Of a stretch of 64,000 nucleotides of DNA, positions 7,195-63,580 are shown piece by piece. Below the pieces are notes generated by a model that saw only the letters and a list, made by a program, of their open reading frames with translations, did no database searches and was not told where the DNA came from. This DNA is from an uncultured virus (IMG/VR IMGVR_UViG_3300046616_000384) (taxonomy: Duplodnaviria > Heunggongvirae > Uroviricota > Caudoviricetes). Both the position numbers and the translations under genes were made by a program. The DNA lies in the IMG/VR virus record IMGVR_UViG_3300046616_000384. One strand, 5' to 3'. Position 1 is the first letter of the stretch. Each line of letters starts with the position of its first letter.

Positions 7195-7446
7195 TTGAAA
7201 GTCACCGTCTGGACCAAGTCCGAATGCAGCCAGTGCACCATGACCAAGAAGTTCCTGGACCGCAAGGGTATCGACTTTGAAGAGGCGGACCTGGAGACCA
7301 GCACGCCGGAGCAGCTGCAGAAGTTCAAGGACGACGGCCTGATGCAGGCCCCCATCGTCGTGCTGGGCAACAACGGCCGCACGTGGGCCGGCTTCCGGCC
7401 TGACCTGATCGAGGAGCTGGCCAGCATTGTCCGGGTGGCGGAGTGA
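7195..7446 (+). CDS. nrdH: NrdH-like glutaredoxin
   Basis: VWTKSECSQCTMTKK..QAPIV..WAGFRPDLI. Confidence 0.9.
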   Translation: MKVTVWTKSECSQCTMTKKFLDRKGIDFEEADLETSTPEQLQKFKDDGLMQAPIVVLGNNGRTWAGFRPDLIEELASIVRVAE

Positions 7447-7789
7447 CCGCCGGTCCGCCTGGAGCGGGTCCACGCGCAAAGCTCGACTGCCCGCTGACTG
7501 GGACCGCCTGCGGGCGGTTGTGCTGCGTCGGTGCGGACATCGTTGCGAATGGATCGAGAACGGATTCCGCTGCCTCGCCGCTGCTACCGACGTCGACCAC
7601 ATCCTGCGGGGAGACCTGCACGAGCTGTCCAACCTCCAGGGGCTGTGCTCCAAGCACCACTTAGCGAAGACCAGCAGCGAGGCCAATGCCGTGCAGGCGG
7701 AGCGCAGGAAGCTCCTCCGCCTCCCCGAGGAGAAACAGCCCGGGGTCATTGACGGCCCTCCCCAACCACCCACACACCGAGGTTTCTAA
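7427..7789 (+). CDS. HNH endonuclease (packaging-associated)
   Basis: RCEW..C..ATDVDHI..NLQGLCSKHH..KT; directly upstream of terS. Confidence 0.85.
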   Translation: MSGWRSDRRSAWSGSTRKARLPADWDRLRAVVLRRCGHRCEWIENGFRCLAAATDVDHILRGDLHELSNLQGLCSKHHLAKTSSEANAVQAERRKLLRLPEEKQPGVIDGPPQPPTHRGF

Positions 7790-8215
7790 ATGCCTGGACC
7801 CATTCCCAAGCGCAGCGATGAACGGACGAGACGCAACAAGCCTGAGAACGAAGGCGGCGTCTCCCTGAGCAAGGGCGAGCGTGTCCCGTACCGGGTGCCG
7901 CCCGTCGACAGCGCCTGGCATCCCCGGGCCAAGCAGTGGTACCGCTCACTATCCCGCTCCGGGATGCGCGAGTACTACGAACTCTCCGACTACGAAATGG
8001 CCAGAGTCCTCTGTGACGCCCTGACCGAGTATTACAAACGCCCCTCCGCGATGATGCTGGCCACCATCCTGCAGGGCATGACCTCCCTCGGAGTCACCGA
8101 GGGTGAACGCCGGCGCATGCGGATCGAGCTTGAGTCCCCCAAGGAACTTGAGACCTCCGCTTCCGTAACGGCCATTGACACATACCGCGAGCAGCTGGGG
8201 GTCCAGGAGGCCTGA
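7790..8215 (+). CDS. terS: terminase small subunit
   Basis: MPGPIPKRSDERTRRN..WHPRAKQWY..LGVTEGERRRMRIE; position. Confidence 0.85.
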   Translation: MPGPIPKRSDERTRRNKPENEGGVSLSKGERVPYRVPPVDSAWHPRAKQWYRSLSRSGMREYYELSDYEMARVLCDALTEYYKRPSAMMLATILQGMTSLGVTEGERRRMRIELESPKELETSASVTAIDTYREQLGVQEA

Positions 8216-8242
8216 CCCTGCCCGCTGAAAGGGTGGGCCCAG

Positions 8243-9936
8243 GTGGCCGACGCTTCACTTACGCCTGAAGAAATCGAGCAGATCGAGCCCACGGCTGAGA
8301 ATGCTCTCAAGTACTTCCCGCCCTCCTTCATCGGCCCCACGTGGCAGAAGGATGAGGCGGGCAAATGGCTGCTGCCCGAGAAGACTCTCGGCTGGGAGAT
8401 CCTTGGATGGGTCGCCGAATGGCTGACCTTCTCCGACGACCGGCCCTGGATGGCAACGCCCGAACAGGCCCGATTTATCCTGTGGTTTTACGCACTCGAC
8501 CACCGCGGAAAATTCAAATACAGGAAAGCCGTTTTGCAGCGCATGAAGGGCTGGGGAAAAGACCCGCTTGCGGCCGTCCTGTCAATTGTTGAATTGATCG
8601 GCCCCAGCCAGTTTTCGCATTGGGATGCCAATGGCAATCCGGTCGGGAAGCCCCACCCGGACGCTTATGTCCAGGTCACTGCAGTCTCGGAATCCCAGAC
8701 GGAAAACACCCGCGACGTGTTCCCCGGGTTGATTCCCACGCGCACACGCCAGGCCTTCAATATGGATGTCCAGAAGGAGGTAATTTACGCCAATGGCGGT
8801 AAGCAGAAGCTGCGCACGATGAGTGCCAACTTCCGTTCCGCCGAAGGCGGCCGATTATCTGAGTCACATTCTGCATTGCTAATGAGACCCACCACTGGAC
8901 GCCGGGCCAACGCGGCCCGCAATTCATGAACGTTATTACCAACAACCTTACCAAGGTCAAAGGTCGGCTCCTGTGCATCACTAACGCCTACGAGCCTGGT
9001 GAGGAATCCGTCGCGCAGACCATCCGCGAGGAGCAGGAAAAGGTGTGGGCCGGCCTTGCCAAGCCGTCAGGTTGGCTGTATGACTCGCTCGAAGCCCACC
9101 CGGATGCCCCACTTACCGAGGAGTGGGCTACCCATGTCGTCTCCACGATCCGGGGGGACGCCCACTGGCTCGATGTCGAGGACATCGTTTCTGAGATCCA
9201 GGATGGGTCCAAGACCACAGCTTCCAAAAGGCGCATGTGGTTTAACCAGATTGTTTCTTCTGGAGATTCCCTCATTACCGTGGCCCAGTGGGACCGCATT
9301 CTCCAGCCCGGCTGCTACGGCGATAAGCGTGACCTGAAAAAGGGCGATGCTATTGTCATGGGATTCGACGGGTCGAAAACTGATGATGCGACCGCCCTGG
9401 TCGCAATCCGCATTTCGGATAATCTCATTGTCCCGCTGGGAATCTGGCAGAACCCGGACCCTTCCCGGAAATGGGAAGTGCCAATTCCCGAGGTCGAGTC
9501 GGAAGTCCACCTCGCATTCCAGATGTACAAAGTTCATGCCTTCTTTGCCGACACGGCCTATTGGGAGAGCCAGGTCGACACCTGGTCCGATTTGTACCGT
9601 GAGCGGCTGCTGGTCAAGGCAAGCCCCCGCTCCACCGTGGGCTTCGATATGCGCGGCAACAAGGCCCGAATTTCCCAGACAACCGAGGCCTTTGTCGGCT
9701 CGATCCTCGACGGCCGCGTAAAGCAAAACGGCCACCGGCTGATGCGAATGCACGTTTTGAATGTCAAAAGGCGCACTAATTCCTATGGCCTCTGGTTTGG
9801 AAAATCATCGTCGGAGAGCCCGCGCAAAATTGACGGGTTCGCCGCCGGCTTCCTGGCCTACATGGCACTGACCACCCTCGCTGAGTCCGGCAAGAAACTC
9901 CCCAAGGAGTACAACCGCCGGCTGATTACCTTCTAG
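8243..9936 (+). pseudogene. terL: terminase large subunit split by an 8-nt insertion (ORFs 8243..8929 and 8926..9936)
   Basis: Walker A MKGWGKD; removing TTATCTGA (8855-8862) restores SAEGGR-VTFCIANETHHW (Walker B); nuclease MGFDGSKTDD..KIDG. Confidence 0.8.
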
Positions 9937-9968
9937 TACTGGTTTGGTACCACACCAGTACCACGCCA
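9933..9968. repeat. 11-bp-period GTAC array A
   Basis: GTAC at 9936, 9947, 9958. Confidence 0.75.
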
Positions 9969-9986: not shown

Positions 9987-11528
9987 TTGCCGACCTTCGA
10001 CGAATTTTCCCGGGGGCAGCGGGACCAGATCTATGCCAACCCGGACGTGAAGGCCGGCAACTTCGATCTGAAGCTGGTCGAGGACATGTTCCTCACTCTC
10101 AGCCACGACCGCGCCGAGTACGACCTGTGCCACGACTACTTTGAGGGCCGCCAGCTCCTGCCGTACGCCCCCCGCAACGCCACCGCCCAGATCAAGGACC
10201 TGCAGCGGAGGAGCATTGCAAATTGGATTCCCCTGCTCGTCAATTTGCCATCGCAGATGTCATTCGTGGACGACTACCGCCGGCGGGCGGCCGGGAAGCT
10301 GGAGCGCAAGCCCCAGGACTCCGCGGAAAACTCGAACACCGAGTGGGTCCTGTGGCAGAAAAATCGCATGGATGCCAGACAGGCGGTCGTCTACCGCTCG
10401 GTGCTGACCTACGGCCACGCCTTCGTGGCGGTGAACAACATCGACCCGAAGAACATCACCTTCGACATCCTCTCCACCCGCCACACTGTGGCGTACTTCC
10501 GCGACCCGGTCAACGACATCCGCCCGTCCCACGTGCTGACGATCAAGAGCTACCCGCGCGATGAGAAGATCCCCGGCCTCGCCGTCCTCTGGGACGACGT
10601 CTACCGCTGGGAGATGGTCTACAGCGTGGACGGGAAGTTCGTCGTCAAGGGCAAGCCGTTCAAGCACGGCCTGGGCAAGTGCCCGGTGATCCGCTATACC
10701 TGCTTCCTCGATGATGAAGGCCGCACCCGCGGCGTCGTCAAGCCCGCCATTCCGCTACAGGACCGCCTGAACCAGGCGACGTTCTCCACCAATGTGACCA
10801 GTGATTACGGCGCGTTCAAAGTCCGCTACGCCGCCGGCCTGGTGCCTTCCTTCAGGAAGGACGAGAACGGCGAGCTGATGCTGGATGCGAACAACGAGCC
10901 GATCCCGGAACCGATCGAGGTCTCCCAGGCCGCGATGCTGATCTCTGATGATCCGCTGACAAAATTCGGACAGCTGGAAGAGACCCCGCTGGACGGCTAT
11001 ATCCGGCAGGAGGAGCAGGCCGCGCGCAACTTCACGACCCTGTCCCAGTTCCCGCCGCTGGCCTCCATCTCCAACCTGGCCAACCTTTCGGCCGAAGCCT
11101 GGGCCGCGGCCGAGGCGCAGTTCATCAGGTGGATCGACTCGCTGCACGTTTCCCTGGGCGAGTCCCACGAGGAGCTGCTGCGCACCGGGGCCCTGGCCGC
11201 CGGCGACAAGGCAGGCGCCGAATCCTACGGCGGCGAGGTCCGCTGGCGCGACCAGACCACCAAGACTGTGGCGGTGATGATGGACGCGCTCGGCAAGGCA
11301 GCGACCATGCTCGATGTTCCGCGCAAGGGCTTGTGGCCCATGATCCCGGGCGTCACCAACGGCATGCTCGATGACTGGGACCAGCTCCACGACGAGCAGA
11401 TCCAGGAGCAGCAGGAGCAGGACGTGAAGCTCGCGCAGGCCACCGCCGCGCGGGCCCAGAGAGTCTCGGGCGCCCCGAAGCCGACGTCCCCCAACGGGAC
11501 GCAGACCAAGCCCGTAAGTGGCAACTGA
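9987..11528 (+). CDS. portal protein
   Basis: Follows terL; YFEGRQ..NWIPLLVN..W..NRMDARQ..HGLGKCPV SPP1-type portal pattern. Confidence 0.9.
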   Translation: MPTFDEFSRGQRDQIYANPDVKAGNFDLKLVEDMFLTLSHDRAEYDLCHDYFEGRQLLPYAPRNATAQIKDLQRRSIANWIPLLVNLPSQMSFVDDYRRRAAGKLERKPQDSAENSNTEWVLWQKNRMDARQAVVYRSVLTYGHAFVAVNNIDPKNITFDILSTRHTVAYFRDPVNDIRPSHVLTIKSYPRDEKIPGLAVLWDDVYRWEMVYSVDGKFVVKGKPFKHGLGKCPVIRYTCFLDDEGRTRGVVKPAIPLQDRLNQATFSTNVTSDYGAFKVRYAAGLVPSFRKDENGELMLDANNEPIPEPIEVSQAAMLISDDPLTKFGQLEETPLDGYIRQEEQAARNFTTLSQFPPLASISNLANLSAEAWAAAEAQFIRWIDSLHVSLGESHEELLRTGALAAGDKAGAESYGGEVRWRDQTTKTVAVMMDALGKAATMLDVPRKGLWPMIPGVTNGMLDDWDQLHDEQIQEQQEQDVKLAQATAARAQRVSGAPKPTSPNGTQTKPVSGN

Positions 11529-13167: not shown

Positions 13168-13227
13168 CCTCCCCCACCACCAGCGCCTCTAGGCGCTTTT
13201 TTTATGCCCTCCGAAAGGGACAACGAA

Positions 13228-14601
13228 ATGACTTATACCCCCAGCATCAAGGTGAAGCCGGCGGTCCTGGTCCAGGCTGCAGTCTCCGCACTGCGCGACC
13301 AGCTCGTCATCAGCAACACCGTGACCAAGCGTTCGGACATGAAGACCTTCTTCGCGTCCGCCGGCGACACCCTCTCCTACCGCGTCAAGGGCACCGTTCC
13401 GGTGCGTACCTACACCGCGCGCAATGATAGGAGCCAGCCCATTCTGACGGACTCCTACGCCGAGACTGTCGTGACCCTGACCATCTCGGCTGATCGCCCC
13501 TACAGCGCGATCAAGCTCACCGACGAGCAGCTCGATTGGGATTTCCAGGATGGGTGGGGAGATCTGATTGAAGCTCAGACTAGCTCCATCGCTTCCTACC
13601 TCGAACATGGTGTCCTCAACCAGATCCTCAAGGCTCCCTACGAGCGCGTGATCCTCGTCAAGGACGACACCACGGGCCTGGCTAACGCCAAGGACGCCGA
13701 TGAATCGGTCTTCTTCAATGCCATCGTCGAGGCCAAAAAGGCCCTCCGCCTGATGCGCACCCCGAACGATACCCTCGTCTGCATTTGCGGCGTGGACTTC
13801 GAGGAAAAGATCATCAAGAGCCGGCGCTTCCTGAAGGACCAGGGCACCGGAGACGCTGCTCTGACCTCCGCAACGCTCGGCACGATCGCCGGAGTCACGC
13901 TGGTTTCTTCGACCCAGATCCCTGCCGATGAGGCTTACATGTACGCCTCCAGCGGGTTCCTGGTGTTCACCGGAGTCCCCTCCATCCCCAAGTCTGTCCC
14001 GTTCGGGGCGACGGCAACTGCCGGCGGCTGGGCCTTGCGCTGGCTCCAAGACTATGATACGGCCTACCTCACAGACCGTAGCGTGTTCGATCTGTACGCA
14101 GGCTACTCCTACACCAAGGACCGCCTCGCGGTCTTCGACGGCTCCAGCCGTGAGATCATCTCTGCCGACGAATACTTCGTCCGCGGCGTGAAGCTCGCCC
14201 TGAAGTCCTCCACCTCCGCTGTGGAGAAGAAGCCGGGCGATGGCTCCACCACGACCCCCGGCGGCTCCGCCAGCTCCTTCCTGGCCAAGGCCTACAACCT
14301 CCAGCCGATCACCGGCCCCGAGGTCCAGGGTGAGCCGTTCCCGCTCGGCGGCAACTACCCGGGCGCTAAGGCTGCTGCTACGGCCGCTGTGGTCAAGTCC
14401 GGCTCCACCGTCGGCTCCATCACGGTCACCGCCCAGGGCTACGGCTACACCTCCACCCCGACGGTCACCATCTCCGGCGGCGCCGGCACCGGCGCTACCG
14501 CCGTGGCCACCATCCACAACGGCCAGGTCACCGCCATCACCGTGACCGCTGCGGGCACCGGCTACACCGGCACCCCGACCGTTACCGTCGCAGCCCCGTA
14601 A
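13228..14601 (+). CDS. major capsid protein with C-terminal Gly/Thr-rich extension
   Basis: Position; GDTLSYRV; C-terminal GYGYTSTPTVTISGG..GTGYTGTPTVTVAAP. Confidence 0.85.
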   Translation: MTYTPSIKVKPAVLVQAAVSALRDQLVISNTVTKRSDMKTFFASAGDTLSYRVKGTVPVRTYTARNDRSQPILTDSYAETVVTLTISADRPYSAIKLTDEQLDWDFQDGWGDLIEAQTSSIASYLEHGVLNQILKAPYERVILVKDDTTGLANAKDADESVFFNAIVEAKKALRLMRTPNDTLVCICGVDFEEKIIKSRRFLKDQGTGDAALTSATLGTIAGVTLVSSTQIPADEAYMYASSGFLVFTGVPSIPKSVPFGATATAGGWALRWLQDYDTAYLTDRSVFDLYAGYSYTKDRLAVFDGSSREIISADEYFVRGVKLALKSSTSAVEKKPGDGSTTTPGGSASSFLAKAYNLQPITGPEVQGEPFPLGGNYPGAKAAATAAVVKSGSTVGSITVTAQGYGYTSTPTVTISGGAGTGATAVATIHNGQVTAITVTAAGTGYTGTPTVTVAAP

Positions 14602-17262: not shown

Positions 17263-17324
17263 TTGTACCAACCCGGTACGACACCAGTACCAAACCAGTC
17301 CGCAACTAGTACCACACCACTACT
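17263..17324. repeat. 11-bp-period GTAC array B (6 units)
   Basis: Cores at 17265, 17276, 17287, 17298 (GTCC), 17309, 17320 (CTAC). Confidence 0.85.
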
Positions 17325-17337
17325 TAGGAGATCAGCC

Positions 17338-17715
17338 ATGTCCGCACTGAAGCTGGATGACCTGCGCAAGGGCGCAGAGTCCAAGTACCCCGACTTTGAG
17401 ATCGAGACCGAGGACGGAAAGGTCCTCGGCTTCAAGCCGCTCTACCGGCTGCCCAAGGCGAAGCGCAAGGCGGTTGCCGCCGCGTTCGACCTCCAGCAGC
17501 GCGCCGAGGCCCTGGGCGAGGATACCGACGTTGACCAGCCGGAGCTGTTCATCGCGGTCATCTCCGACGCGCTGAAGGCCGCCGAGCGCACCGAGGGGGA
17601 CCACAAGGCCCTCGTCGAATGGGCCGGCACCGAGGACCTGGGGATCTGGCTGTTCATCTTCACCAACTACTCCGAGGCCACCGACCTGGGGGAAGCATCG
17701 CCCTCGGTGAACTGA
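17338..17715 (+). CDS. tail assembly chaperone (G)
   Basis: AGGAG RBS; slippery GGGGGAA at 17688-17694. Confidence 0.85.
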   Translation: MSALKLDDLRKGAESKYPDFEIETEDGKVLGFKPLYRLPKAKRKAVAAAFDLQQRAEALGEDTDVDQPELFIAVISDALKAAERTEGDHKALVEWAGTEDLGIWLFIFTNYSEATDLGEASPSVN

Positions 17716-18161
17716 TCGACTCCGGATACGGCGAGGAGATCTATCTCGATCTCAAGGAGTACTGGAAATTTGACCTCGTCGGCTTCATAGCCGGCGAGGT
17801 CTTTTCCTCTATCACCCTGATTCTCGCCATGATCCGGAACCTTCCCGAGGGCTCACGATTCGCTGCGGCCATGTCCGTGGACAAGGAGGGGGAGCTGGGC
17901 GATGCCGTCGTCTTCGCGGAGCCGGACCCGCGCACCGCGGCCATCATGGACCACCGCACGTGGACCGTGGACCGGCGCCTCCAGGCGACAGCAATCAACG
18001 CCATACACACCCAGATCGCCGTCACCGGCCACTGGGGCAAGGAAGGCCCTCCGGACTTCCCAGTGATCGGGCCCGCCTCCTGGCAGCCCGCCAAAAAACA
18101 GTCGGAAGAGTTGAAAGACAACTACGACGTTCTCAGAAAGATGGGGTGGCCAGGTGGCTAA
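17688..18161 (+). CDS. tail assembly chaperone -1 frameshift extension (G-T)
   Basis: -1 frame open from G GGG GAA to 18161; canonical position before the tape measure gene. Confidence 0.8.
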   Translation, partial: GGSIALGELIDSGYGEEIYLDLKEYWKFDLVGFIAGEVFSSITLILAMIRNLPEGSRFAAAMSVDKEGELGDAVVFAEPDPRTAAIMDHRTWTVDRRLQATAINAIHTQIAVTGHWGKEGPPDFPVIGPASWQPAKKQSEELKDNYDVLRKMGWPGG

Positions 18162-44127: not shown

Positions 44128-44772
44128 ATGATTATCACCATCGGCTCCCTGAAGGGGGGCGTCAGCAAGAGCACCACAGCCGTGAACACGGCCGTGGAAC
44201 TGACCAGGCAGGGCCGGCGGGTGGCGCTGGTGGATGCGGACCCCAACACGAACACGTCCGTGACGTGGGCGGGGGACCGGGAGAGCCACAGTCCGGGGCT
44301 GGCCCCCGTGCTCGGGCTCCAGCGGCGGGGCAACCTGCGCAACACCCTGCTGGACATGGACCGGTCCTACGATGTGGTGCTGGTGGACGTGGGCGGGTAT
44401 GACAGCCAGGAGATGCGCACGGCCGCCACGGCGGCCGATCTGCTGGTGGTGCCCATGACCCCGTCCCCGGTCGATCTGGACCCGCTGGCGCCCTTCATGA
44501 CCCTGCTGGAGGCGTTCCGGGACTTCAACCCGGGGCTGGTGGCCCGGGGCCTGATGACGCAGGTGCCCACCCAGTCGATGTCCAAGAGGCTCGGCGATGC
44601 CAAGGCCATCCTGGCCGACTATCCCGATCTACCGCTGTTCGATACGGTGATGCACCGCCGCAATGCCTACATCGACGTCATGCCGGTGGGCAGGGGAGTG
44701 GTGGAGTGGACCGACTACAAGGCCAAGGCTGAGCTTCAGCTGATCGTCCAGGAGATGATGACCCATGGCTAG
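44128..44772 (+). CDS. parA: ParA (type Ib Walker ATPase)
   Basis: KGGVSKST; VDADP; LVDVGG; AADLLVVP..SPVD; R.AY..GRGVVE; no N-terminal HTH. Confidence 0.95.
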   Translation: MIITIGSLKGGVSKSTTAVNTAVELTRQGRRVALVDADPNTNTSVTWAGDRESHSPGLAPVLGLQRRGNLRNTLLDMDRSYDVVLVDVGGYDSQEMRTAATAADLLVVPMTPSPVDLDPLAPFMTLLEAFRDFNPGLVARGLMTQVPTQSMSKRLGDAKAILADYPDLPLFDTVMHRRNAYIDVMPVGRGVVEWTDYKAKAELQLIVQEMMTHG

Positions 44773-45025
44773 GACAACGCCGAACCGCAGGGTGGCGGGC
44801 ACGGCACTGGATAGGGAGATCGAGGAGTTCGCCAGGCAGGCGGCCACGGCACCGCTGGTGATCGAGCCGAGGAAGGAGGCGGCGTCGGTGGGGTTCAACT
44901 TCAAGATGACGCCGACCAACCATGCCCGGCTTAAGCGGGTGGCGGAGGCGGAGGACCGCAGCCTGCAGAACCTGTTGAACACGATTGTGTGGCCCGCGAT
45001 TGCGGAGAAGGAAGGGGAGATCTGA
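44765..45025 (+). CDS. ParG-like ribbon-helix-helix centromere-binding protein
   Basis: IEEFARQA N-terminal tail; VGFNFKM strand + HARLKRVAEAEDRSLQNLL helices; overlaps parA. Confidence 0.75.
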   Translation: MARTTPNRRVAGTALDREIEEFARQAATAPLVIEPRKEAASVGFNFKMTPTNHARLKRVAEAEDRSLQNLLNTIVWPAIAEKEGEI

Positions 45026-62542: not shown

Positions 62543-63580
62543 ATGGCAACGGCAAGCTATGAGGCGGTCAAATTGCGTAAGCAAATTGCCCGGGATATGG
62601 GAATACGCCTATCGGCGTTGAAAATCCCGGCAATGCCGGAAAATGCAAAAGACGTAAACCGCCGGGCGGATAACGTGGCGGAAAAATTCGGCACGTTCGG
62701 AATTGACCGTGAAATGAATGAATGGTCAACGGCGCTACGGGACGTTATGCGGGAAAACCACACCGCGATTATGGCGCGGAAAATCACCCGGGCAATTCCG
62801 GCAACAAAAGCCGCGCTAGTCACAACGAAAATCGGTTATGACGTAGTGACAATTTCCCGCGTGGAAAAAGCCGCTAACGTCGATTCAATCCGCCGCCAAT
62901 TGGCAAAAGCGATTGAGCGCGAAAATGCGGCAATGGCGGCACGGGAGGCGGCGGAAGAATTAGAGGCACGTAAGACAAACCTAGAACGGGCACCAAAAGC
63001 CGTTAAAGCCGCCTCTAAGCGCCGTTCAGTGCTGGCAGACAGGGAACATGCCCGTGTGCGCTTTTTGCGCCGCAAATTGGCACGTGCCGCCTCCCAACGG
63101 GTAGCAAACAATCTCACCTATTCCCGCGTTGGGGATGTGAGGCTTTCACTCAATCCGCAATCAATGGCAAATCAGGTTGCGCGGCTTGTGGCGGATATTC
63201 CAGACAGGAAAGACGTGCACCCATTTAGGGAATTGCCGCGAATCAGGAAAGTGACTGGCACAACGGCAACGGCAATAATCGGAAAGCCGGAAAACGAATT
63301 GATCTGGCAGGAAGACAAAGCCGTTCTAGACGCCGCCCGGAAAGAACGGGACGAAAAAGCGGCGGCGGAAAAAGCCCGAATTGCGGCAATAGAGGCGGCG
63401 GAAGAAAAAGCCCGGAAAGCCGCATTAGAGGCGGCTCGAATTGAGCGCCGTAATCAGCGCCGAATTGATAACGCGGAAAAATATGAGGCAACGCGAATTG
63501 CCGCTAATGCCCGTAGGGCACTTGCCGCGAAAATCCGCCGGGAAAATGCAAAGCACAAACAACCTAAGAAAATGCGTTAG
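62543..63580 (+). CDS. basic Ala/Arg/Lys-rich coiled-coil protein of unknown function
   Basis: 345 aa; GGGAGG RBS; own putative promoter and terminator; atypical codon usage. Confidence 0.75.
   Translation: MATASYEAVKLRKQIARDMGIRLSALKIPAMPENAKDVNRRADNVAEKFGTFGIDREMNEWSTALRDVMRENHTAIMARKITRAIPATKAALVTTKIGYDVVTISRVEKAANVDSIRRQLAKAIERENAAMAAREAAEELEARKTNLERAPKAVKAASKRRSVLADREHARVRFLRRKLARAASQRVANNLTYSRVGDVRLSLNPQSMANQVARLVADIPDRKDVHPFRELPRIRKVTGTTATAIIGKPENELIWQEDKAVLDAARKERDEKAAAEKARIAAIEAAEEKARKAALEAARIERRNQRRIDNAEKYEATRIAANARRALAAKIRRENAKHKQPKKMR

Follow-up and report, generated by a model that had tools for sequence, protein, structure and literature searches.

A short insert ahead of Walker B in the terminase large subunit gene of an uncultured phage: a candidate translational bypass

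Organization of the terL locus

The window, by which we mean the whole 64,000-nt stretch of DNA that was analyzed, makes up nearly all of a 64,382-nt phage record consisting of a single contig (Table 1). The gene for the terminase large subunit (terL) begins with an ORF (ORF1, 8243-8929) that has a GTG start at 8243 and contains an 8-nt insert, TTATCTGA, at 8855-8862, between a CGA codon (8852-8854, Arg204) and GTC (8863). The insert splits terL seven codons 5' of the Walker B glutamate. The frame in which the gene resumes is shut by TGA at 8860-8862, is then open from 8863 for 357 codons and begins VTFCIANETHHW, while the TGA of ORF1 (8927-8929) overlaps an ATG at 8926. A preliminary description had reported an 8-nt insertion just 5' of Walker B, the presence of Walker B in neither annotated ORF, and the stop/start overlap; the first is confirmed by the sequence and by alignment to gapless homologues, and the other two were seen as claimed. 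What it missed is that the first triplet of TTATCTGA is an in-frame TTA (8855-8857) and the last (8860-8862) a stop in the resumed frame. TTA is the rarest codon of the structural region, at 3 of 8,572 codons in 27 ORFs.

Table 1. Features of the terL region and other genes of the window discussed in the text
Feature	Position	Strand	Evidence or remark
Small HNH gene upstream of terS	7427-7789	+	PHROG 333 HNH, E 1e-30
Terminase small subunit (terS)	7790-8215	+	PF25673, E 3e-43
Predicted hairpin spanning the ribosome-binding region of terL, immediately 3' of the terS stop	8205-8245	+	raw MFE -24.1 kcal/mol for 8205-8262
terL 5' part, codons 1-204, ATPase N-terminal region	8243-8854	+	PHROG 9 terL, E 1e-24; 85% identical to gapless L013
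Walker A region QRMKGWGKDP, uninterrupted in the window	8537-8566	+	gap site in other clade members and in phiHau3 g6/g7
SD-like GAAGGCGG	8843-8850	+	sequence
Proposed take-off codon CGA (Arg204)	8852-8854	+	CGA in 4/4 carriers vs 2/27 others; also in L214
Proposed coding gap TTATCTGA: UUA 8855-8857, UC, proposed landing UGA 8860-8862	8855-8862	+	
Zero-frame tail if UUA is decoded, 24 codons, ends TGA 8927-8929, not conserved	8855-8929	+	
terL 3' part, 357 codons: GTC, Walker B region, nuclease domain	8863-9936	+	PHROG 9, E 1e-41; PF20441
Walker B region VTFCIANE (then THHW)	8863-8886	+	
Portal, intact	9987-11528	+	PF05133, E 2e-21
parA and small downstream ORF	44128-45025	+	PHROG 164 ParA, E 4e-43

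When an uninterrupted homologue is aligned to the window, the match falls into just two pieces (8255-8860 and 8863-9933), with no other terL match in the 64,382-nt genome; since only these two abutting pieces are matched, the genome has no second terL. Both halves match PHROG 9, and the ATPase and nuclease parts are collinear with gapless terL (204 + 357 codons, compared with 560 aa in the gapless L082). In gapless relatives, EGGR runs straight into VTF. The downstream N-E-T-x-H motif is invariant in 12/12 uninterrupted homologues, and the TerL intein of phage Gaia falls between its NE and T; as this intein is placed within Walker B in the available text of PMC5050341, its position backs the Walker B label given earlier. 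The Walker A region QRMKGWGKDP is weakly aligned with the P-loop of HK97 TerL. Base composition across terL (8243-9936) is GC 0.57-0.58 and GC3 0.70-0.73, both well below the values of most neighboring virion genes, whose GC3 is mostly 0.8-0.95. The sequence of the hairpin region at the start of terL is similar across the clade described below.

The other virion genes had been described as intact, and those scanned do match full-length families. The major capsid protein gene (13204-14601) specifies a C-terminal extension (residues 376-455) that matches virion structural families, and at 17263-18161 there are two overlapping ORFs for tail assembly chaperones, in different frames and in the layout usual for programmed frameshifting. 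A 345-codon, A-rich ORF near the right end (62543-63580) has no Pfam or PHROG match. The genome carries parA and a repressor gene, and no integrase match was found among 107 window ORFs scanned against PHROGs, so that a plasmid-prophage lifestyle is plausible from gene content. A GTACCA-type intergenic repeat, a possible operator or partition site, occurs at 9945-9964, 17281-17320, 44093 (just upstream of parA), about 48700 and 54995.

The insert in other samples and phages

The insert is present in independently assembled data. The probable source run gave one 10.5-kb contig (depth 14.6) with 0 differences across terL, and a run from another study gave a 373-nt contig (depth 13.3) that spans the insert site, also with 0 differences; as this evidence consists of assembled contigs, rare insert-free alleles are invisible at that level. 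A third run (X13) contains a relative that is 91% identical and is without the 8 nt, and a fourth is without coverage of the insert site. Two IMG/VR sequences (L004 and L005), 100% identical to the window in both terL halves, also carry TTATCTGA. Among 27 IMG/VR relatives of at least 72% identity, the identical 8 nt occur in L016 (84% aa identity in the 3' half; L079 is the same contig), and among 23 metagenome contigs they recur in L078 (86% aa), while L070 (89%) has a 6-nt, in-frame version, TTATGA. Alignment to terL homologues, proposed earlier as a check, thus gave contiguous genes in the gapless ones and the same or a shorter insert in these three. An assembly or sequencing error, one of the explanations first offered, is refuted by the recurrence of the identical insert across samples, in the contig from the second study and in divergent phages.

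Gap distribution and selection within the clade

The clade was taken as 31 distinct terL genes of at least 76% identity, with duplicates merged and some members near-identical to one another. Four of them (the window, L016, L070 and L078) have the gap on the Walker B side. Among the 28 members covering both sites, 19 have a gap at Walker A, 2 have the Walker B-side gap and 7 have neither. None has both, but this mutual exclusion is not significant (0/28, p=0.095), and Hau3-type phages do have both. The Walker A gaps of the clade are 8-10 nt long, follow a Trp codon and are stop-led in 18 of 19 cases: 17 read TAG-YY-AGG, and the other two are 10 nt long, one led by TAA and one by CCA. These two gap regions are the same as those of phiHau3. 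The Walker B-side gap is dispensable, because 7 of the 28 members and the 91% identical X13 relative do without it.

With the gaps set aside, no further stop or frameshift was found in the 31 genes, some of which are cut by contig ends. Among the four carriers of the Walker B-side gap, dN/dS is 0.071 over codons 105-204 and 0.069 in the 3' part; for L016 vs L078 it is 0.024 and 0.037, at dS 0.60 and 0.75. The corresponding values for gapless clade genes are 0.073 and 0.136 (range 0.07-0.15), and for carriers of the Walker A gap 0.09-0.17. Both terL halves are under purifying selection in the carriers (0.02-0.10), with constraint no lower than that on gapless genes. L016 and L078 are sisters (96% support), but the carriers fall at scattered points of the tree and the trees of individual segments conflict, so a recent recombinational transfer of the gap could hide relaxed selection.

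If UUA were simply decoded, the zero-frame tails of the four carriers would be 24, 31, 1 and 3 aa long, and the ATG of the ATGA overlap occurs in the window only; an arrangement of two coupled proteins is thus not conserved. Codons 8863-8925, which would be skipped in a two-protein model, are conserved at the amino-acid level. A TerL naturally split into two proteins that are coupled via the ATGA at 8926 would account for the stop/start overlap of the window, but Walker B would then be absent from both proteins and the other three carriers are without the ATG; given the conserved codons as well, this is barely credible.

The CGA that precedes the gap is shared by 4/4 carriers and by 2/27 other clade members. 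This bears on another early suggestion, a reversible switch, taken here as one at the DNA level: excision between the GA repeats would remove the 8 nt from some genomes, which would then be packaged. Close gapless relatives exist, as such a switch would predict, but the gapless alleles belong to different phages that mostly have CGT or CGC, whereas excision would leave CGA. In addition, no insert-free contig of the strain was present in its two runs, though contigs drop rare variants, and we regard the switch as very unlikely. A co-conversion tract 5' of the gap was considered and found weak, two gapless genes being equally close to the window there.

Gaps across the wider terL family

Pattern scans of IMG/VR returned at least 132 loci, at least 67 of them terL-like, and gave a total of at least 70 gap sites and at least 45 distinct gaps of 4-15 nt, counts that include related lineages and are not independent events. 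The 45 gaps use four take-off positions, after Trp or Gly at Walker A and after Arg or Ser before Walker B. L209 and L218 (a mis-registered pattern with no insert), L211 (a 2-nt anomaly), L223 and L322 are outside the 70-site and 45-gap counts, and as the Walker A scan pattern forced GGN before AAR, G-type landing matches were not used. Among the matches listed, the first triplets of the 45 gaps are TTA (16), TAG (10), TGA (8), TAA (4), AGG (2), AGA (2), CCA (2) and GAT (1); a stop or UUA thus leads 38/45 gaps, compared with 4, 0 and 2 at offsets +1, +2 and +3. In all 15 cases where the pattern left the last gap triplet free, again among the matches listed, two or three of its positions agree with the take-off codon. 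The gaps span all three frame classes and are flanked by direct repeats of 2-3 nt. In L214, from a phage 40-47% identical, CGA-TTA-C-CGC is found at precisely the gap position of the window, so the register is fixed.

A number of other loci differ in detail. In a Micrococcaceae-family genome, the Walker A Lys is followed by a 5-nt gap led by TGA (L223; G352:C1, about 21260). L208, L215 and L322 are Hau3-like terL genes with two gaps, the first of which is TGA-led rather than TTA-led in L208 and L215. Just 5' of Walker B, L211 has two extra bases in a TTT-TTA run, either a possible UUA-driven shift or an error. The distant, terL-like L244, L245 and L249 (G301, G251 and G243) show an apparent split between ATPase and nuclease near residue 350, which is of a different kind.

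The tie between the first triplet and the reading frame bears on explanations that act on DNA or RNA alone. A plain mobile-element footprint, as first suggested, leaves the stop or UUA at the start of 38/45 gaps (among the matches listed) unexplained. Removal of the 8 nt at the RNA level, whether as a micro-intron, by cut-and-ligate or by polymerase skipping between the GA...GA repeats, would fit the 2-3 nt direct repeats around the gaps. However, the gaps are without a common sequence, length (4-15 nt) or fold, the slow first codon follows the reading frame (38 gaps, against 4 and 0 at other offsets, among the matches listed), and the phiHau3 analogue needed the slow codon for recoding in E. 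coli, according to the accessible text of PMC10732093. Removal at the RNA level is quite unlikely.

Gaps of this type are rare among cultured phages, as 0/60 sampled from 1,566 GenBank phage homologues were split at Walker A, and no stop-led gap occurred among the best 15 of 137 and the best 12 of 396 GenBank phage matches. In the open-access literature of PMC and bioRxiv, no paper was found that describes terL gaps led by stops or located outside Streptomyces. The plaque-isolated phages phiHau3 and GreenWeasel have UUA-led, 10-nt gaps in both regions, the second of them one codon downstream of the window's gap, and BroPlease has one in the first region only.

The options of the preliminary description included a packaging-dead prophage locked as a plasmid. 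In such a reading, terL would be dead or crippled in a plasmid-like prophage and the gap spread by recombination among prophages, which is in keeping with the parA and repressor genes, the lack of an integrase match, the rarity of gaps in cultured phages (0/60 sampled) and the scattering of carriers on the tree. It is disfavored by dN/dS of about 0.07 on both sides of the gap (0.02-0.10 across comparisons of carriers), by the absence of a second lesion in 31 clade genes, by the slow codon that comes first in 38/45 gaps among the matches listed, and by the equivalent gaps of plaque-isolated Hau3-group phages. We consider a dead terL unlikely; the lifestyle part of that proposal is plausible, but does not require a dead terL.

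Proposed translational bypass

Recoding or bypass, one of five options in the preliminary description, is the one supported. We propose, with a probability of roughly 0.7, that TTATCTGA is a coding gap that some ribosomes skip by a short translational bypass. By its sequence, the gap has the layout expected of a ribosomal hop, in which a slow in-frame codon is followed by a near copy of the pre-gap codon; the hop itself and the anticodon pairing are inferred. The peptidyl-tRNA-Arg would sit on CGA (8852-8854) with the very rare UUA stalling the A site. The tRNA would then release CGA, the mRNA slide by 8 nt, the tRNA re-pair on UGA (8860-8862), and decoding restart at GUC. The product of the hop would be a 561-aa TerL, collinear with gapless homologues, while ribosomes that decode UUA would make a 228-aa fragment without Walker B or nuclease.

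In the Micrococcaceae-family genome that was checked, the Arg tRNAs among 57 scanned tRNA loci carry the anticodons ACG, CCG, CCT and TCT, and none carries TCG; reading of CGA thus presumably falls to the ACG tRNA, edited to inosine. The anticodon is probably ICG, which would pair weakly with CGA and could accept UGA via a first-position G.U wobble. Going 3' from take-off, UGA at +8 is the earliest triplet open to ICG if no more than a wobble at the first position is allowed. This landing triplet is not a cognate of the take-off tRNA, CGA and UGA matching at positions 2-3 only.

No strong or shared hairpin was found at the gap, where the raw MFE is -9.0 to -11.1 kcal/mol and folds differ among the four carriers; the Hau3 sites have local MFE of -21 to -26. 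The stall at UUA may be weak in the likely host, since a tRNA-Leu(UAA) gene is present in the family genome checked, and control of the bldA type may be limited to Streptomycineae, as the available text of PMC4255298 has it. UUA is itself rare in a Micrococcaceae-family genome, at 1 of 3,031 codons in one 20-kb stretch.

The SD-like GAAGGCGG could act as a mini-SD, a role that we infer by analogy: in T4 gene 60, low-level resumption occurs without landing-site pairing and is aided by a mini-SD (10.1101/2024.12.09.627546, in the part available). GAAGGCGG is also dictated by the protein, as gapless relatives have GAAGGYGG, encoding E-G-G. Four of the six synonymous codons 5' of the gap are identical in the four carriers, which is the case in 20 of 3,876 quartets of non-carriers; this is suggestive of synonymous conservation over the SD-like stretch.

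The landing triplet is a stop in the resumed frame, so a plain frameshift would terminate there, and the gap of L070, being in frame, cannot be a frameshift. If ribosomes instead shifted by -1 or +2 at CGA-UUA and then read through UGA, 1-3 residues would be added, and in L070 readthrough alone would be needed. UUA could drive such a shift, and UGA is a leaky stop. Against this combination, two rare events are required and there is no slippery run, the spacing from EGxR to NET is fixed in alignments of uninterrupted homologues of 30 to 94% identity, and gaps occur in all three frame classes, which together make it distinctly improbable.

Host, role and origin of the gaps

The host is probably Arthrobacter, judging from sequence: 190 of 203 phage records matched by the endolysin are from Arthrobacter phages, and one clade member is located in an Arthrobacter MAG. 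The best matches of the capsid protein and TerL are to Streptomyces phages, at less than 50%. The bldA explanation from Streptomyces may not apply here; with Arthrobacter the probable host and bldA perhaps confined to Streptomycineae, the life-cycle sensor model of phiHau3 would transfer poorly. Sister phages have stops in place of UUA. The gap is most likely tolerated because TerL is needed in small amount, and the bypass would serve as a low-efficiency throttle.

The family's Walker A gaps may originally have marked DNA as immune to HNH cassettes, and an origin by homing nuclease is plausible for them, though unsupported for the site in the window. An HNH gene lies between terS and terL at 8/27 distant loci with Walker A gaps and at 0/11 others, an association that is not significant (p=0.08). 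In the clade, terL begins with an additional block of about 37 nt, resembling a duplicated start, in all 19 carriers of the Walker A gap and in 0/9 others, and gapless lineages are nested at five or more places. This pattern fits a lost nuclease cassette. An extended SD at the terL start is present in 48/48 carriers of the Walker A gap (within the clade, 19/19 vs 0/9), but Bethlehem and 4 of the 6 gapless cultured phages that were scored have it too, which weakens both its tie to the gap and the cassette reading.

The block of about 37 nt follows the ancestral GTG (e.g. L087:5105-5165) and ends in a near-perfect SD, then ATC or ATT, a possible non-AUG start. In the window (8243-8263) and L073, terL begins MA(D/N)ASLT, which looks like the result of a deletion between CTTCA repeats of the block.

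Several other candidate traces of nucleases were set aside. The HNH gene upstream of terS occurs in all clade members whose sequence extends far enough in that direction, gapped and gapless alike, and its link to the gap was rejected. The window has no HNH inserted at the terS-terL or terL-portal junction, and none was detected next to terL in the other carriers of its gap with flank available. In the window and L070, terL is followed by an additional 35-40 nt, which were rejected as a nuclease remnant, the motif being repeated elsewhere in the genome. A coincidence with intein sites was discarded too: the TerL intein of Bethlehem is near residue 150 and that of Gaia about 24 nt 3' of the gap, neither being at the gap. 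In L082, a gapless clade member, a 257-aa HNH endonuclease is encoded between terL and portal (1891-2664); it is of the same kind as the terS-terL HNHs of distant gap carriers, and no relative of it was found adjoining a terL.

Tentatively, somewhat short of even odds, the terL genes of actinophages may host a widespread family of programmed micro-bypasses of 4-15 nt, triggered by UAG, UAA, UGA, UUA or rare Arg or Pro codons at five or more take-off positions. These would not be confined to Streptomyces and would put up with a mismatched landing (here, a stop); HNH cassettes inserted where terL begins would have spread them at first, and they would since have been retained or exchanged as a TerL throttle. 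If so, the bldA 'life-cycle sensor' view of phiHau3 would be a special case and not the origin. Few natural genes are known to use programmed bypassing, and the phiHau3 case consists of three genes with modest experimental support. The clade offers natural counterparts of published constructs (a gap containing a stop of the resumed frame, gaps with stops in place of UUA, and a gap that is in frame), probably in an easy-to-grow host and with close gapless relatives as controls. It makes testable how efficient a short, mismatched-landing hop is for an essential gene, and whether such gaps are regulatory or relics of selfish nucleases. Many 'split' or 'pseudogene' annotations of actinophage terL may also be wrong.

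Comparison with known bypass systems

The closest parallel is the UUA-linked terL bypass described for phiHau3 (g6/g7 and g7/g8) and for the prophages StrepC.1 and that of S. catenulae (PMC10732093, and Smith et al. 2013 via it). In the text of PMC10732093 that is available, a full-length product was seen in Streptomyces, MS detected the junction peptide in E. coli once UAA had been substituted for UUA, and a stop put inside the gap raised recoding; 3 of 100 terL genes had such gaps, all UUA-led. The window belongs to the same terL family (48-50% aa identity to phiHau3). It likewise has a short non-coding insert between sequences that are contiguous in homologues, an in-frame UUA at the start of the gap and a last triplet resembling the take-off codon, but its gap is one codon upstream of that of Hau3 g7/g8; the SD-like run just 5' of the gap may correspond to that of phiHau3 or may simply reflect the encoded E-G-G. 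The differences are in gap length (8 nt, or 6 in L070, vs 10 or 7), in the landing (a stop with a first-position mismatch to the take-off CGA, vs a synonymous codon), in number (one gap per gene in the clade, vs two in phiHau3 and GreenWeasel), in the strong hairpin around UUA, present at the Hau3 sites but not in the window, and in the UAG- and UAA-led gaps of the window's sister phages, where those in the same available text are UUA-only. The phiHau3-type host is Streptomyces with bldA, while for the probable Arthrobacter host of the window bldA-type control is not expected. By analogy, the window would be a variant of the phiHau3-type bypass and not a member, because the cognate landing and strong hairpin are absent and the host is probably different.

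T4 gene 60 has a 50-nt bypass with a MobA HNH cassette (10.1101/2022.08.31.505936; 10.1101/2024.12.09.627546, each in the part available). As in the window, a non-coding insert lies in an essential phage gene, has the arrangement of take-off, slow codon and landing, and is patchily distributed; the association with HNH is paralleled by some Walker A gap carriers (8/27, HNH between terS and terL). T4 gene 60, as given there, combines a gap of about 50 nt with matched GGA codons, UAG and a take-off stem-loop, whereas the window has 8 nt, CGA/UGA and UUA: a gap six times shorter, with an unmatched landing and no large take-off hairpin. An adjacent travelling homing endonuclease of the MobA type is likewise not seen in the window.

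The synthetic hops over stop or hungry codons in E. coli, as covered in the available text of PMC5009743, span 6-9 nt over a slow codon between near-matched codons, and the window has the same arrangement. That text, a 2016 review, knew of no natural in-frame stop hop. The seven Walker A gaps of the form Gly-stop-NNN-Gly (L091, L092, L094, L099, L135, L184 and L207), which are 9 nt long and in frame, and the 6-nt gap of L070 are, on their sequence, candidates for natural stop hops.
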